Of a DNA stretch of 34,937 nucleotides, positions 22,393 through 28,407 are shown piece after piece. The stretch lies in the IMG/VR virus record IMGVR_UViG_2571042690_000022; one strand, 5' to 3'. Position 1 is the stretch's first letter, and every line of letters starts with the position of its first letter. The notes under the pieces were generated by a model, which saw only the letters and a program-made list of their open reading frames with translations, was not told the origin of the DNA and searched no databases. A program made the translations under genes and the position numbers. Origin of the DNA: a virus. Its lineage: Duplodnaviria; Heunggongvirae; Uroviricota; Caudoviricetes.

Positions 22393-22643
22393 TGAAAGAA
22401 TACCGCTATTCCGGCCCGGCCAGCGGCGTCACGCTGTCGGACGGAACCGAAATCCTGCTCTGGCCGGGGAAGACGGTTTCCCTGCCGGAGGAGCATGACT
22501 ACGTGAAGGTACTGGTGGCGCTGAAACATCTGACGCCGGTACCTGAAGAGACTAAACCCGCCGGCACACCGGCTGTGCAGTCACCAAAGCGCAGAAGCAG
22601 CAGTGACAGCGAAGTGAAAACGGAGGACACCCATGGCAGCTAA
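22389..22643 (+). CDS. hypothetical small late protein
   Basis: 84 aa with low-complexity C-terminus; directly upstream of the tail sheath. Confidence 0.45.
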   Translation: MMKEYRYSGPASGVTLSDGTEILLWPGKTVSLPEEHDYVKVLVALKHLTPVPEETKPAGTPAVQSPKRRSSSDSEVKTEDTHGS

Positions 22644-24060
22644 CTATCTGCATGGTCCCGAAACCATTGAGGTGGAAAACGGTGCCCGCCCGGTTAAAAC
22701 GGTGAAATCTGCCGTTATTGGCCTGATTGGTACCGCCCCGATGGGGGATGTCAATACGCTGGTACAGTGCCTGTCTGAGAAAGACGCAGCGGCATTTGGC
22801 AGCCAGTTCACCGGCTTTACCATTCCGCAGGCGCTGGATGCGATTTATGACCATGGTGCAGGCACCGTTCTGGTCATTAACGTCCTCGACCCGGCGAAAC
22901 ATAAAACGGCGATCGAGGATGAGGTGGTTACCTTTGACAAATCGACAGGGCAGGCCAGACTGGCGCATCCGGTTGTCGCTAATGTGGTGGTGAAAAACAG
23001 TGAAGGCAGCACCACCCACACGGCGAACACGGACTACCGTGTTGATGCGCAGGCGGGTGTGCTCACGAACCTGGGCAAGGCTATTGAGGCCGGTGGCAGC
23101 GTGAAGGTGAGCTATGAGTACGCGGACCCGTCGAAGGTGACTGCGGCGGACATCATCGGCGGGGTGAACAGCGCCGGAAACCGAACCGGCATGAAGCTGC
23201 TTAACGACAGCTTCAACCTGTACGGCTATTTCGCCAAAATTCTGATTGCGCCGGTGTTCTGCACCCAGAAGAGTGTCGCAGTTGAGCTTATCGCCATGGC
23301 AGAGAAGCTGGGCGCGGTAACCTACATTGATGCGCCTGTCGGTACCACCTTTGCACAGGCTCTGGCAGGTCGTGGCCCGGAAGGCACCATCAACTTCAAT
23401 ACCAGCTCCGACCGCGTCCGTCTGTGCTATCCGCATGTGAAGGTATATGACCCGGTGACAAACACAGAGCGTCTGGAGCCGCTCAGCCAGCGTGCAGCAG
23501 GTCTGCGTGCCAGAGTCGATCTGGACAAGGGCTACTGGTGGTCATCCTCCAATCAGGAGATTCTGGGGATCACCGGCGTGGAGCGCCAGCTGTCCGCGAT
23601 GATTGATGACCCGCAGAGTGAGGTGAACCTGCTTAACGAACAGGGGATCACCACGGTATTCAGCAGTTACGGCAGCGGCCTTCGTCTGTGGGGTAACCGG
23701 ACGGCAGCATGGCCAACGGTCACCCATATGCGTAACTTTGAGAACGTTCGCCGCACCGGTGATGTGATCAACGAGTCCATTCGTTATTTCAGCCAGCAGT
23801 ACATCGACATGCCGATTACTCAGGCGCTGATTGATGCACTGACGGAGTCGGTCAACGCCTACGGTCGCAAAATGACTGGTGATGGTGCGGTACTGGGCTT
23901 CCGTTGCTGGTTTGATCCGGCCCGCAATCCGGAGACGGAGCTGGCCGCCGGGCACCTGTTGCTGAGCTACAAATATACGCCACCACCGCCGCTGGAGCGA
24001 CTGACGTTTGAGACTGAGATCACCTCGGAATACCTGTTAACCCTGAAAGGGGGCAACTGA
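22633..24060 (+). CDS. tail sheath protein (Mu L-like)
   Basis: 475 aa; size, position before the tube gene and conserved C-terminal region typical of contractile tail sheath. Confidence 0.85.
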   Translation: MAANYLHGPETIEVENGARPVKTVKSAVIGLIGTAPMGDVNTLVQCLSEKDAAAFGSQFTGFTIPQALDAIYDHGAGTVLVINVLDPAKHKTAIEDEVVTFDKSTGQARLAHPVVANVVVKNSEGSTTHTANTDYRVDAQAGVLTNLGKAIEAGGSVKVSYEYADPSKVTAADIIGGVNSAGNRTGMKLLNDSFNLYGYFAKILIAPVFCTQKSVAVELIAMAEKLGAVTYIDAPVGTTFAQALAGRGPEGTINFNTSSDRVRLCYPHVKVYDPVTNTERLEPLSQRAAGLRARVDLDKGYWWSSSNQEILGITGVERQLSAMIDDPQSEVNLLNEQGITTVFSSYGSGLRLWGNRTAAWPTVTHMRNFENVRRTGDVINESIRYFSQQYIDMPITQALIDALTESVNAYGRKMTGDGAVLGFRCWFDPARNPETELAAGHLLLSYKYTPPPPLERLTFETEITSEYLLTLKGGN

Positions 24061-24581
24061 TGTCAAAGATTGAGATAAACCGCATCACGAATGCCAACAT
24101 CTATCTGGATGGTACTAACCTGCTGGGACGGGCTGAGGAAGTTAAACTCCCCGATGTCTCCATGATTATGCAGGAACACAAGGCGCTGGGGATGGTGGGT
24201 AAGGTGGAACTCCCGGCTGGTTTTGACAAACTGGAAGGCGAAATCAAATGGAACAGCTTTTACCGCGATGCGATGCTGTCTGCCGCGAACCCGTACAGGT
24301 CGCTGGCACTGCAGTGTCGTTCCAGCGTCCAGCGCTACAGCTCGCAGGGGCTGATTGACGAAATCCCGCTGGTCACCTTCCTGACGATTATGTTCAAGAA
24401 GAACCCGCTGGGGACGTTCAAACAGCACGAGAACGCCGAGTTCTCCAGTAGCTTCACCTGCACGTATATCAGACAGGTACTGGATGGTGAAGAGCTGCTG
24501 CAACTGGACTATCTGGCCAACATCTTCCGGGTCGGCGGTGTTGATCAACTGACTGACTACCGTATCAATATCGGGGGCTGA
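24060..24581 (+). CDS. tail tube protein (Mu M-like)
   Basis: 173 aa immediately after the sheath with overlapping start. Confidence 0.8.
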   Translation: MSKIEINRITNANIYLDGTNLLGRAEEVKLPDVSMIMQEHKALGMVGKVELPAGFDKLEGEIKWNSFYRDAMLSAANPYRSLALQCRSSVQRYSSQGLIDEIPLVTFLTIMFKKNPLGTFKQHENAEFSSSFTCTYIRQVLDGEELLQLDYLANIFRVGGVDQLTDYRINIGG

Positions 24582-24583
24582 CG

Positions 24584-24865
24584 GTGAGTGTTGAACTGAC
24601 GGATAAAGGAGGACGATGTGCGGCACTGGGCATGTCAAATGGTACGTGGTTTACCCTCCTTGATATTCCGGGGGTGGAAACCCTTTTTAATACCCGTAAA
24701 ACCAATGACCCGATTGACTGCACACGTTCAAAGGCCCGCAAACTGGCGGATTTGATTGAAGCATGGGAGCCTCCCGACCACTGGTTCTCCGGCATCGGCA
24801 AATCTGAGGGAAAGACGCTTCTCATCGCTTTCCTGCGTAACTGCAAGGGGTTTCGCACTTGCTGA
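24584..24865 (+). CDS. hypothetical protein between tube and tail chaperone
   Basis: 93-aa ORF followed by a terminator-like hairpin; no motif recognised. Confidence 0.4.
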   Translation: MSVELTDKGGRCAALGMSNGTWFTLLDIPGVETLFNTRKTNDPIDCTRSKARKLADLIEAWEPPDHWFSGIGKSEGKTLLIAFLRNCKGFRTC

Positions 24866-24871
24866 CATCAC

Positions 24872-24896
24872 AGGGGCTCCGGCCCCTTCTTCTTAA
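24872..24896 (+). terminator. terminator-like hairpin after the sheath/tube block
   Basis: AGGGGC (24872-24877), loop TCCG, GCCCCT (24882-24887), then TCTTCTTAATCTCCTTT. Confidence 0.45.
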
Positions 24897-24962: not shown

Positions 24963-25298
24963 ATGTCACAGACCCCATCCGATACTTTTAAATTGTCTTA
25001 TCCCTTCACCACTGCTGCAGGCACCAGAATTGAGCTGGTTGAACTGAAACGCCTGACGGTAAAAGACCTGAAGCAGGTGCGCAAAATCAGCAAAAACCCG
25101 GCAGACTGGGACGAACCGCTGATTGCCCGCAGTACTGGTCTTCTCCCGGAGGATCTCGACAATATGGATCTGGCTGATTACCTGCAGTTACAGAAACGAT
25201 TTCAGCTCATCACGGGGATGGGTGAGAGCAACCAGGGCGCTGACGCAGGCGCAGGGGCTGCTGGCGAGATGGTTCCGGTTTCAGCCGGGGGAGATTGA
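24963..25298 (+). CDS. tail assembly chaperone (G-like ORF)
   Basis: 111 aa between tube and tape measure, overlapped by a +1 frame ORF, the conserved two-ORF chaperone arrangement of tailed phages. Confidence 0.5.
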   Translation: MSQTPSDTFKLSYPFTTAAGTRIELVELKRLTVKDLKQVRKISKNPADWDEPLIARSTGLLPEDLDNMDLADYLQLQKRFQLITGMGESNQGADAGAGAAGEMVPVSAGGD

Positions 25299-25380
25299 TG
25301 CCCTCGATACTGACGATCTGGAGATGTGGCTGGAGCAGGCTGAAGAGCAAATCAAAAGCGAGTACGGCGACAAATCATAG
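25123..25380 (+). CDS. tail chaperone frameshift extension (GT-like), +1 frame
   Basis: +1 frame ORF overlapping the chaperone 3' end; a GGGGG run at 25287-25291 three codons before the chaperone stop could mediate a +1 slip; exact site unverified. Confidence 0.4.
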   Translation: MPAVLVFSRRISTIWIWLITCSYRNDFSSSRGWVRATRALTQAQGLLARWFRFQPGEIDALDTDDLEMWLEQAEEQIKSEYGDKS

Positions 25381-25385
25381 TACAG

Positions 25386-25406
25386 ACAGCCGCCAGTAGC
25401 GGCTGT
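25386..25406 (+). terminator. hairpin (attenuator/terminator-like) before tape measure gene
   Basis: ACAGCCGC (25386-25393), loop CAGTA, GCGGCTGT (25399-25406), then pyrimidine-rich tract; tape-measure RBS GGAGG at 25442-25446. Confidence 0.4.
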
Positions 25407-25455: not shown

Positions 25456-28407
25456 ATGTCGGGACAGTTTTCAGTCGGCGTTGTTATCGGCGGGATGATT
25501 GGCAGCACATTCCGTTCTGCAATGAGCGGTACCCGCCGTGCGCTTGATTCCCTGAGCGATACCTCACGCCGCCTGCAGGAACGTCAGAACGCTTTAACCC
25601 GTGCAACAGAACGTTATGGTCAACTGGGTTCTTCCCGGATGCAGCATCTCAACAGCGAGCTGCTGCGGGTAAGCCGCACCATGGAGCAAATTGAGCGCCA
25701 GCAGCGCCGTCTGTCAGCGGCATCCGCTACCAGTGATGCGCTGAAAGCTAACCGCATGGCGCTGTATGGTCAGGGGATTGAAGCGTATGGCATGGCACAG
25801 ACTGTTTATCATACGGTTTCCCCTGCCGTTCAGCAGTCCATGTCTTTTCAGGACAAAATGATTGATATGTCGATCACCGCAAAATATGACAATAAAACGC
25901 GGGATGCACTTGCCGGACAGATAAAAGGCTGGGCGCTTAAATACAATCAGTATCAGGATGAGCTGCAGGAGGCGATGGGTTCACTCATCAGCGACAATAT
26001 TGATAATGTGTCAGATATCGGTTTTCTGATGCCGGATATTGCCCGCGCGGCAACGGCAACACGCACGTCTGCTCAGGACTGGGCAAAAGTGGCCGCAGTC
26101 TGGCAAAACTCCCTGAAAGGCGCGGCCAGAGATTTTGGTGCCGTTCAGAATATTATGGCTTATGCCGGTGACCAGGGGTCATTTGAAATCCCGGATCAGG
26201 TCAAGTGGATGCAGTCCCTGGCCCCAATGATGGCGGGTATTGCCAGTGGAAAAGAGGCTGTTGCTGAAATCGGGGCCAGTCTCCAGATAGCAAAAATCGG
26301 TGCAGGTTCCACCGACGAAGCAGCCAATAATTTTAAAAACTTTCTTACCAAAATTTTTGCCCGCGATACTCAGAAACAGTTTGCTGATCTGGGTATTGAT
26401 TTGCAGGGATCTATTGCGAGTTATAAAGCTGCGGGGATCTCTCCGATTGAAGGGATGTTGAGTGTTATAGAACGTTACCTCAATGCCAAAAGCCCCGAAG
26501 CGCTGGCCGGCTTCAAATCAGCCATGAAAATAAAGAATGATACGGCAAGAGATGAGGCACTTCAGGCTCTGGCGAAAAACTTTGGTCTGGGCGATATGTT
26601 CGCGGATATGCAGGTCATGGCATTTATCCGCCCGATGCTGGCCAACATGGACAGATATCGAGAGATCCGTGCCGGTGCTCTCAGGGCTGCGGATAACGAT
26701 TTGCTTGCCAGTGCTTATGATCAGCGGCTGAAATCTCCCCTTGAAGCCACTAAAACACTTATGGTCAGCAGTCGCGATCTGGCAATTACGCTGGGCGATC
26801 AATTAGCTCCATCTTTTATTTCTCTGACTCAGGACTTGCTCCCACTCATTCAGGGGACAAAACACTGGGTGGCGACTCACCCGCAATTTGTCAGTGGGGC
26901 TTTTAAGCTCATCAGTGCGCTCCTTGCGATTAAGATAGCGACTGTTGGTCTCAAACTGGGGCTGAATCTCCTTATTTCCCCCTTTGTGAACGTCTGGAAA
27001 ACTGCTGTTTTACTCCGGACCAACTGGCATCGACTGACTACCGCACTCGGAGAAGGTGGCAAATTACGCTGGCTTGTCACTGGATTCAGCCGACTGACCA
27101 GCGGAGGACTGAAACTCAGCAAAGTTCTGGCGGGCAGCCTCGTTCGCGGTTTTATGAGCGCTGCACGTGCCGTTCTCTGGATTGGGCGAGCGCTGATGAT
27201 GAATCCCATCGGTCTCGTTATCACCGCTGTCGCGGCAGCAGCTTACCTTATCTACCGCAACTGGGGGGCAGTCAGTGGCTGGTTTAAACAGCGCTGGGCT
27301 GACATTCAGGAAGCCTTTAACGGCGGTATCGCGGGAACTGGTAAGCTGCTGATTAACTGGTCGCCGGCAGGCCTGCTCTATAAAGCCTTTGCGGCTGCGC
27401 TGAAATATTTCGGCGTTACTCTGCCGGCAAAGTTCACCGACTTCGGTGGCCATCTTATCGACGGTTTGATTAACGGTATCAAAAACAAATGGGGGTCGCT
27501 CAAATCCAGTGTAACCGGAATGGGTGACAGCATCAGTAGCTGGTTTAAACAATGCTGGGCTGACATTCAGGAAGCCTTTAACGGCGGTATCGCGGGAACT
27601 GGTAAGCTGCTGATTAACTGGTCGCCGGCAGGTCTGCTCTATAAAGCCTTTGCAGCTGCGCTGAAATATCTTGGTGTTGATCTGCCGGCAAAGTTTACCG
27701 ACTTCGGTGGCCATCTTGTCGATGGTCTGATTAACGGTATCAAAAACAAATGGGAGTCGCTCAAATCCAGTGTAACCGGAATGGGCGACAGCATCAGTGG
27801 CTGGTTCAGCGAAAAGCTGGGCATTCATTCGCCGAGCCGCGTGTTTATGGGCTTTGGTGACAATATCGCGCAGGGGGCCGCCATTGGCCTGCAGCGGACC
27901 ACTCCGCTTGCAGCTCTGGCCGGGCAGCGAATGGCCAGTGAACTGCTCCCCAGAATGCCCGTGAGCATTCAGGGGCCAGAAATACGGGATAACACTTCAG
28001 GTGTTCGCTTCAGTATGCCGTTGCCCGATATCAATGGGTTTATGTCGTCTGCTAAAAATGCGATCGGAGCCGTAATCAATAGTTTGTCTTCCATGCCCGC
28101 TATTCCGCTCTCCACCCGGGCATCGATTTTACCAGGGCAACGTCTGGCAAATGAGATGACACCGGATGTTCCCCGTATCCCCTCGCCTGAAATCCTGGCT
28201 GCCGGATATTCAGGCCGTGGTGCAGCTGCAACCGGCGGTGGAACGTCTGGTGGTATCCAGGTCAGCTTTAATCCTCAGTTTTTCCTCAATGGCAGGGAAA
28301 CCACAGCGCCTGCAGGACTGACTGGTGCCCTGAATATGAGTCTGCATGAGCTGGAAAAAATGCTGGAGCGTCTGCTGGCTCAGAAACAACGTAAGGAGTA
28401 CCGCTGA
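25456..28407 (+). CDS. tail tape measure protein
   Basis: 983 aa, largest gene; helical/Ala-rich composition; position after the chaperone pair; contains an internal 87-aa tandem duplication. Confidence 0.85.
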   Translation: MSGQFSVGVVIGGMIGSTFRSAMSGTRRALDSLSDTSRRLQERQNALTRATERYGQLGSSRMQHLNSELLRVSRTMEQIERQQRRLSAASATSDALKANRMALYGQGIEAYGMAQTVYHTVSPAVQQSMSFQDKMIDMSITAKYDNKTRDALAGQIKGWALKYNQYQDELQEAMGSLISDNIDNVSDIGFLMPDIARAATATRTSAQDWAKVAAVWQNSLKGAARDFGAVQNIMAYAGDQGSFEIPDQVKWMQSLAPMMAGIASGKEAVAEIGASLQIAKIGAGSTDEAANNFKNFLTKIFARDTQKQFADLGIDLQGSIASYKAAGISPIEGMLSVIERYLNAKSPEALAGFKSAMKIKNDTARDEALQALAKNFGLGDMFADMQVMAFIRPMLANMDRYREIRAGALRAADNDLLASAYDQRLKSPLEATKTLMVSSRDLAITLGDQLAPSFISLTQDLLPLIQGTKHWVATHPQFVSGAFKLISALLAIKIATVGLKLGLNLLISPFVNVWKTAVLLRTNWHRLTTALGEGGKLRWLVTGFSRLTSGGLKLSKVLAGSLVRGFMSAARAVLWIGRALMMNPIGLVITAVAAAAYLIYRNWGAVSGWFKQRWADIQEAFNGGIAGTGKLLINWSPAGLLYKAFAAALKYFGVTLPAKFTDFGGHLIDGLINGIKNKWGSLKSSVTGMGDSISSWFKQCWADIQEAFNGGIAGTGKLLINWSPAGLLYKAFAAALKYLGVDLPAKFTDFGGHLVDGLINGIKNKWESLKSSVTGMGDSISGWFSEKLGIHSPSRVFMGFGDNIAQGAAIGLQRTTPLAALAGQRMASELLPRMPVSIQGPEIRDNTSGVRFSMPLPDINGFMSSAKNAIGAVINSLSSMPAIPLSTRASILPGQRLANEMTPDVPRIPSPEILAAGYSGRGAAATGGGTSGGIQVSFNPQFFLNGRETTAPAGLTGALNMSLHELEKMLERLLAQKQRKEYR
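27273..27806 (+). repeat. near-perfect 261-bp in-frame tandem duplication inside the tape measure gene
   Basis: Unit beginning ...GCTGGTTTAAACA recurs with 261-nt offset (27301 vs 27562), a handful of mismatches; protein WFKQ(R/C)WADIQEAFNGGIAGTGKLLINWSPAGLLYKAFAAALKY... repeated. Confidence 0.85.

Follow-up and report, generated by a model that had tools for sequence, protein, structure and literature searches.

[quoted passage not shown]

Introduction

Where, and in which direction, do ribosomes change frame between a phage tail assembly chaperone gene and the open reading frame (ORF) that overlaps its 3′ end? The question arises for a 34,937-nucleotide stretch of caudoviricete DNA (IMG/VR record IMGVR_UViG_2571042690_000022; the whole stretch is called the window here), in which the chaperone ORF ends in GCC GGG GGA GAT TGA. 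A sequence-only reading of the window had placed a +1 slip on the run of five G (G5) in these codons, allowing that the shift could instead lie further upstream within 25123-25298. The sequence of the gene end (G run 25287-25291, stop 25296-25298) and the +1 frame of the downstream ORF, which extends to 25380, were both confirmed, the latter in all 94 enterobacterial homologues compared. The G5 run as slip site is contradicted by frame-specific selection, by the positions of stop codons and by poor conservation, and it was the fallback that proved correct: the interval can be narrowed to 25174-25218, with the tetranucleotide UUU_C at 25200-25203 favoured.

To our knowledge, few internal +1 sites that work without a stop codon are known in bacteria. 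Programmed frameshifting in tail chaperone genes is itself well known, with −1, −2 and +1 shifts all reported (PMC5009743; PMC2628397), and internal, stop-less +1 sites are notoriously hard to spot (PMC5009743).

Tail-gene context of the overlapping ORFs

The window represents a BcepMu-like prophage of E. coli. Its sequence shows 100% identity to Escherichia phage PhiKM (genus Bcepmuvirus), and the prophage region was matched in 641 of 5,426 complete E. coli genomes. Its sheath gene (22633-24060) and tube gene (24060-24581) are followed by a 93-amino-acid (aa) ORF (24584-24865), by the chaperone gene (24963-25298) and by the tape measure gene (25456-28407; PF10145, E = 1.3e-20), with homologues of gpU, gpX and gpD 3′ of the latter; the chaperone gene, the tape measure gene and all features of the overlap described below are on the plus strand. 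Two overlapping ORFs, the chaperone and the +1 ORF ending at 25380, thus lie between the tube and tape measure genes, and the position of the tape measure gene places this pair in the canonical interval.

The neighbourhood has further features of its own. The 93-aa ORF between tube and chaperone genes belongs to phrog_1239, with a DUF7739 match below threshold (24.7 versus 27 bits), and is followed by a terminator-like hairpin (24872-24887, AGGGGC TCCG GCCCCT, then TCTTCTT); BcepMu has no counterpart of this ORF, and the distance from tube to chaperone gene there is only about 120 nt. Between the +1 ORF stop and the tape measure gene, positions 25386-25406 form an 8-bp stem (ACAGCCGC / GCGGCTGT) with a 5-nt loop; the stem is identical and the loop different in Klebsiella phage KP12, and as the stem has no T tract, it is missed by a terminator scan. 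Within the tape measure gene, 27272-27793 is a 261-nt (87-aa) tandem duplication whose copies are 94% identical. A change in its copy number would alter the predicted tail length, and the sequencing gap within the tape measure gene of the PhiKM GenBank record is possibly due to this repeat.

Read in frame 0, the chaperone gene encodes a 111-aa protein of the P2 gpE/Mu gp41 family. Its residues 8-81 match PF10109 (Phage_TAC_7) with E = 5.5e-21 and 74.8 bits against a gathering cut-off of 25 bits, which bears out the earlier assignment of the ORF as a tail assembly chaperone, and the ORF also matches phrog_166 (‘tail protein’). In PhiKM and RefSeq the protein carries the names ‘tail protein E’ or ‘phage tail assembly protein’, and a long product is annotated neither in PhiKM nor in the one RefSeq copy inspected.

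The +1 ORF encodes a putative P2 E′-like domain

In the +1 frame, an ORF extends from 25123 to 25380 (...QPGEIDALDTDDLEMWLEQAEEQIKSEYGDKS) and closes with TAG at 25378-25380. The portion that would be appended to the chaperone by a shift at UUU_C is a predicted extension of 58 aa, SSSRGWVRATRALTQAQGLLARWFRFQPGEIDALDTDDLEMWLEQAEEQIKSEYGDKS (25204-25380). The ORF matches phrog_8286 (E = 1.1e-15) over its last 30 residues, and its stretch 25261-25359, LARWFRFQPGEIDALDTDDLEMWLEQAEEQIKS, is a P2 E′-like domain by a weak match to PF06528 (Phage_P2_GpE): 15.7-16.2 bits, below the gathering threshold of 23, with E = 0.007-0.01 over profile columns 4-36 of 37. Such matches at E ≤ 0.05 were found in 12 of the 16 family extensions aligned, and the extension motif aligns with P2 E′; an hhalign comparison of the extension with PF06528 is circular, since P2 E′ was included in the alignment. 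The PF06528 alignment begins at ARWFRF, which is encoded 5′ of the G5 run. Across the homologues, the corresponding +1 peptide LLARWFRFQP keeps L-A-R-W invariant and F-R-F-Q-P in 89-94 of 94.

The +1 frame has no conserved start codon: ATG, GTG or TTG occurs at no position in more than 45 of the 94 homologues, and in 11 of the 94 all three are missing from the stretch that runs from the last +1 stop to 25240. All 94 enterobacterial sequences keep the overlap in +1, which is equivalent to −2. Since the downstream coding sequence lies in the +1 frame and is conserved without a conserved start, expression through a shift into the +1 frame is the best explanation that these comparisons offer.

Selection changes frame at the end of the chaperone domain

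Homologous loci were drawn from genome and viral collections, the comparison set comprising about 130 related phages in total; 94 distinct enterobacterial sequences could be aligned without gaps over 25002-25379. Synonymous and non-synonymous substitutions (S/N) were counted in each frame along a minimum spanning tree of these 94 sequences, and because sequences within a clade are related, the counts are not independent events. In frame 0, S greatly exceeds N up to about 25196. Further 3′ the pattern is the reverse, with frame-0 S/N values in successive 15-nt bins from 25227 of 20.5/116.5, 21/62, 0/59, 5/50 and 9/73, while the +1 frame is under evident purifying selection: S/N is 55.5/3.5 in +1 versus 0/59 in frame 0 for 25257-25271, and 45.5/9.5 versus 5/50 for 25272-25286. 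From 25218 on, nearly all changes at wobble positions of the +1 frame are synonymous. The TGG that encodes Trp in +1 (25219-25221) is found in 94 of 94 homologues, even though its G is the wobble base of frame-0 Leu, Val or Met codons that have undergone 17 first-base changes.

These data bracket the shift. The +1 frame is open in all 94 homologues only from 25174, synonymous change at +1 wobble positions reaches back to 25218, the following TGG does not vary and no start is conserved; judged from the alignment, the shift must therefore fall within 25174-25218, at the end of the chaperone domain. What follows in frame 0 is an unconstrained C-terminal tail of variable length, LITGMGESNQGADAGAGAAGEMVPVSAGGD in the window (25206-25298), whose stop lies at 25275 in 36 homologues, at 25290 in 26 and at 25296 in 30. 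The lack of purifying selection past residue 81, together with this variable length, fits a functional part of the protein that would end at the TAC_7 domain, and the 111-aa frame-0 protein is predicted to be the short, majority product.

A conserved UUU_C at the frame switch

An alignment of homologous chaperone pairs had been suggested as a way to find a conserved slippery site; it does contain a candidate, which is UUU_C and not the G5 run. [quoted passage not shown] TTT is conserved in 94 of 94 homologues, CGA in 92 and CAG in 91 (CAA in the other 3). The wobble sites of the three codons have undergone 3, 0 and 3 substitutions, compared with a mean of 14.2 over the 63 degenerate wobble sites of the domain, and no other triple of codons in the gene has so few wobble substitutions. 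Among the Arg codons in the long ORFs of the window, CGA is also the least frequent (18 of 461). UUU_C thus sits, conserved, at the 5′ end of the region selected in +1; it is not a canonical X_XXY_YYZ heptamer. We consider it probable, on this comparative evidence, that the long product of the chaperone gene is made by a +1 slip of the P-site tRNA-Phe from UUU to UUC, giving a 138-aa fusion.

Some points weigh against UUU_C. In the enterobacterial clade, both frames are variable over the four or five codons that separate UUU from the invariant +1 Trp, so in this clade alone UUU_C and GGG_N (25215-25218) are inseparable by the substitution patterns. The A-site codon CAG is common in E. coli and would be no obvious ‘hungry codon’ stimulator. 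The low synonymous change at CGA-TTT-CAG could also reflect +1 reading that begins a few codons upstream; as a counterpoint, in the BcepMu clade the codons 5′ of TTT show selection in frame 0 alone. RNAalifold gave essentially no consensus for a conserved downstream RNA structure (0 to −1.1 kcal/mol), downstream 45-nt windows had a weak mean z of −0.83 versus about 0 for controls, no Rfam match was found at the site and no Shine-Dalgarno-like element is apparent in the sequence upstream of it.

The other clades carry the argument further, as UUU_C is the sole element common to all five clades of the +1 type. In the BcepMu clade (14 distinct sequences), (T/G)C(C/T) TTT CG(C/T) is invariant. S/N 5′ of this motif is 37/10 in frame 0 and 3.5/43.5 in +1, and at the first variable site after it (+6) all six substitutions are synonymous in +1 (Ala GCN) and non-synonymous and radical in frame 0 (S/L/R/G/C/D); as far as substitutions can tell, the selected frame in this clade switches exactly at UUU_C. 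A Ralstonia-type clade has CGA TTT CTG in 13 of 13 sequences, with a +1 stop four codons 5′ of UUC, so that the +1 frame opens only three codons ahead. In Pseudomonas, the Komp_PAO1_1 clade has GTG TTT CGG or ACG TTT CAA and the Bise clade GCA, GCG or AAA, then TTT, then CAA or CAG. UUU_C is kept even though these genomes are GC-rich and use TTT for the smaller share of their Phe codons (the codon counts include some spurious ORFs).

In some homologues the extension is a −1 ORF instead; UUU_C is missing from these, and a canonical −1 heptamer occupies the same or a nearby place: G_GUU_UUU_UG in P2 (locus L135), A_AAG_GGA in Pasteurella phage AFS-2018a (L153) and U_UUU_UUC in a further locus (L185). 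In TAC_7 profile columns, the P2 slip site falls at 76-78 and the UUU of the window at 74, the P2 position being taken from Pfam profile coordinates on the assumption of gapless ends; an hhalign comparison of the chaperone profile with P2 gpE aligned the N-terminal part only (probability 0.6). Measured from the slip codon onward, the extensions are of nearly equal length, 58 aa in P2 and 59 aa in the window, and the two align from end to end.

The chaperones and their extensions appear as one homologous family that differs in shift direction, −1 in some members and +1 at UUU_C in others, and in the members with a U run the slip site is the Phe codon or codons ending the chaperone domain. The BcepMu record (L003, AY539836, 2700-3461) annotates gp42 and gp43 as a lambda G/T-like frameshift pair. 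The present comparison indicates that gp41 (PF10109) and gp42 (+1 frame, E′-like) form the pair, and the record appears to be mispaired; in phiE255, a minus-strand membrane-protein gene is annotated within the stretch that BcepMu gives to gp43.

Alternative sites and explanations

A slip on the G5 run (25287-25291), either +1 as proposed in the sequence-only reading or −2 as in Mu, would yield a fusion of the form ...EMVPVSAG(G)-EIDALD..., with the junction peptide ...EMVPVSAG(G)EIDALDTDDLEMWLEQAEEQIK. The run is present, tRNA-Gly could in principle re-pair on it, and Mu uses a G5 run (GG_GGG_CGA) for a −2 shift in the homologous gene (PMC3458567). We nevertheless regard this reading as very improbable. 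The run GGGGG occurs in 51 of the 94 distinct homologues and is absent from 43, and in 29 of the 51 carriers it lies downstream of the frame-0 stop; a frame-0 stop precedes the position of the run in 37 of the 94. Ribosomes in frame 0 could reach it in only 22 homologues, the run being absent or unreachable in the remaining 72. Purifying selection already acts in the +1 frame over about 70 nt 5′ of the run, and the 30 nt directly 5′ of it (25257-25286), with S/N of 101/13 in +1 versus 5/109 in frame 0, are by this measure read in +1. The Klebsiella phage KP12 illustrates the point with a frame-0 TAG five codons 5′ of the run: it has the +1 peptide ARWFRFQPGEID without any change, and each of the four nucleotide differences across this stretch is synonymous in +1. 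A fusion formed at the G5 run would also miss the first part of the conserved E′-like domain (LLARWFRFQP), and the sequence at which Mu changes frame, G5 then CGA, is not found, the G5 run of the window being followed by GAT. The run is a by-product of the +1 codons CCG GGG GAG (Pro-Gly-Glu); relatives with Pro-Ser-Glu have CCG AGT or AGC GAG, hence no G run.

Several 138-aa in-frame fusions of chaperone and extension exist in databases (proteins P0007, P0009, P0023, P0060 and P0113, and locus L017 from Erwinia tracheiphila). They arise by one-base changes in length at the G5 run, at GGG at about 25236 or at an A5 run in KP12-like sequences. One-base genomic deletions at the G5 run (P0007, P0009, L017) might be cited in favour of a slip there, as indels at linker runs (P0023, P0060) might for the linker. 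These fusions are, however, most likely assembly or sequencing errors or pseudogene-like variants, and they carry no evidence on the site of translational slippage.

A more serious competitor, though still an unlikely one, is a +1 slip of tRNA-Gly on GGG_A (25215-25218; ACG GGG ATG G), which would give ...RFQLITG-WVRATRAL.... GGG occurs in 82 of 94 enterobacterial homologues and its wobble base has rarely changed (3 substitutions), position 25218, a +1 wobble site, varies freely and synonymously with the invariant TGG next to it, 25214 is still a synonymous site in frame 0 (17 of 17 changes) and the codon is one past the P2 slip position in the TAC_7 profile. The preference for UUU_C rests on the replacement of GGG in 12 homologues and on its absence from the other clades. 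These 12 keep the +1 extension with GGA, GGC, GGT or AGC, several of which would re-pair poorly in +1 (for example GGA UUG and AGC AUG); the equivalent place holds no GGG in the BcepMu, Komp, Bise and Ralstonia-type clades, and in the BcepMu clade +1 selection begins directly after UUU. Alternatively, the shift might occur at lineage-specific places in the variable linker 25206-25256, with no single conserved site. The linker does vary in both frames and contains several short homopolymer runs, such as the G4 run at 25254-25257 in the window or AAA AAC in relatives, but constraints in +1 lie upstream of such runs, at Trp 25219-25221, at a hydrophobic NTG codon at 25240-25242 whose T is invariant and at an Ala GCN codon at 25249-25251 with 22 synonymous changes in +1, and two loci (L109 and L111) lose the G4 run (GGG TCT) by changes that are synonymous in +1. 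We find this account improbable, and slightly more so an account without any frameshift, in which the +1 ORF has a non-canonical or lineage-specific start of its own and makes a free E′-like peptide, or is a non-functional remnant. Annotations of a separate small ORF (BcepMu gp42, phiE255 gp16 and Komp_PAO1_1 CDS0016) and the ORF's own PHROG family agree with an independent start. The distribution of ATG, GTG and TTG codons described above argues against it, as do the Ralstonia-type and Komp clades, where the +1 frame opens three codons 5′ of UUC and no start is found among them; moreover, the homologous domain of P2 is produced only as a frameshift fusion, and a remnant is excluded by the strong purifying selection.

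Four further candidates were considered and rejected. Selection in +1 reaches further upstream than the G4 run at 25254-25257 (GCA GGG GCT), which is the run lost in L109 and L111. A Lys slip on AAA_C before CGA, with CGA as a slow A-site codon, would need an AAA that is not conserved, its place being taken by ACA, GAC, GAA, CGC and others in enterobacterial sequences and by ACC, GCC, GAG and others in the Ralstonia-type clade. A −2 slip at UUU would offer no possible re-pairing (GAU or CCU), and transcriptional slippage would act at a site without a long homopolymer.

Proposed mechanism

In the mechanism that we favour, with slippage at UUU_C, most ribosomes would read frame 0 through 25298 to make the 111-aa chaperone, and a small fraction would shift +1 at the Phe codon UUU (25200-25202). 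There the peptidyl-tRNA-Phe (anticodon GAA) would leave UUU and re-pair with UUC (25201-25203), after which AGC UCA UCA CGG GGA UGG... would be decoded to the TAG at 25378-25380. The predicted 138-aa fusion consists of residues 1-80 (...DYLQLQKRF, with the complete TAC_7 domain) and the 58 residues given above, with their P2 E′-like domain. By analogy with lambda G/GT and P2 E/E+E′, the domain common to both products would bind the tape measure protein and the extension would recruit the tail tube protein, and a fixed ratio of the two products would be needed for tail assembly.

The conserved CGA may modulate the slip from the E site; alternatively, its poor I:A wobble pair in the P site might favour out-of-frame binding of Phe-tRNA to UUC. 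Either route would lead to the same protein. At RF2, +1 shifting is favoured by weak pairing in the E site (a point taken up in PMC3498833), UUU is among the P-site codons most prone to +1 shifts in the E. coli RF2 system (PMC10885494) and the work on PA-X led its authors to predict further UUU_C sites, as a broader class in which the E- and A-site codons are restricted (PMC3498833). Because no conserved RNA structure, Rfam match or Shine-Dalgarno-like sequence accompanies the site, a low shift efficiency is expected; reported efficiencies are about 1% for PA-X and 2.2% for the −2 shift of Mu (PMC3498833). A low efficiency would suit a chaperone-to-fusion ratio like that of lambda (PMC5009743).

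Implications

What seems new here is a conserved, stop-independent UUU_C +1 site in this chaperone subfamily, and the use of a −1 shift by some members and a +1 shift by others at almost the same codon; no UUU_C-type +1 site in phage tail genes was found in the literature searched, the coverage of which was incomplete. A broader proposal, which we hold to be evenly balanced, is that the tail-chaperone fusion of BcepMu-like phages from Enterobacterales, Burkholderia, Ralstonia and Pseudomonas is made by a bacterial equivalent of the PA-X mechanism, namely a +1 slip on a P-site UUU_C that depends on neither stop codon nor structure, that a rare E-site CGA tunes its level in the enterobacterial and Ralstonia-type clades and that the family has switched between −1 (U6N, A_AAG_GGA) and +1 at or near the same Phe position. 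If true, the family would provide a natural E. coli system for the evolution of frameshift direction and ratio, and with the prophage present in 641 of 5,426 complete genomes, UUU_C is directly testable in E. coli. We caution that tools which look for slippery sites near the frame-0 stop would choose the G5 run, about 85 nt from the likely site. For annotation, the consequence is that PhiKM and the inspected RefSeq copy lack the long product and that BcepMu appears to be wrongly paired as gp42/gp43, not gp41/gp42.

Comparison with known frameshifting systems

The closest parallel is gpE and gpE+E′ in the FETUD tail operon of P2, which shares with the window the chaperone family PF10109, a putative PF06528-like extension, the position between tube and tape measure genes and a slip where the chaperone domain ends, on a Phe codon that is within two to four codons of the window UUU by profile position. 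The direction differs: P2 shifts −1 on G_GUU_UUU_UG, whereas the window has its extension in +1 and a run of only three T followed by C. Mu gp41 is, like the window gene, the tail chaperone of a Mu-like myovirus with an extension in the +1/−2 frame and a G5 run in the gene, and a −2 shift on GG_GGG_CGA has been described for it (Xu et al. 2004, cited through PMC3458567 and PMC3498833); the sequence GG_GGG_CGA was confirmed in the Mu gene. This likeness probably made the G5 run of the window look attractive, but the resemblance is only superficial, as far as the sequences go. Mu gp41 falls into another subfamily (PF23746) and matches PF10109 only weakly, PF06528 finds no match in its extension and its tandem −2 slip needs CGA next, whereas the G5 run of the window precedes GAT, is not conserved and lies inside sequence read in +1. 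With lambda gpG/gpGT the window shares the logic of a chaperone and a scarce frameshift fusion encoded between the major tail and tape measure genes (PMC5009743); lambda, a siphovirus, uses another protein family and a −1 shift on G_GGA_AAG.

The likeness of the proposed slip itself is to viruses of another kind. Influenza PA-X is made by a P-site +1 slip on UCC_UUU_CGU (PMC3498833) and amalgaviruses use UUU_CGN (PMC5052127); the tetranucleotide UUU_C is identical, tRNA-Phe would re-pair to UUC in the same way, the E-site codon is conserved and there is no evident stimulatory structure, and UCC UUU CGC of the BcepMu clade is one base away from the PA-X site. These are eukaryotic RNA viruses with products of unrelated function and a rare CGN codon in the A site, whereas the window has the common CAG in the A site and a rare, conserved CGA in the E site. 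The A-site CGN of PA-X is thus not found in the window, and it recurs as CGC or CGT in the BcepMu clade and as CGG in the Komp clade.
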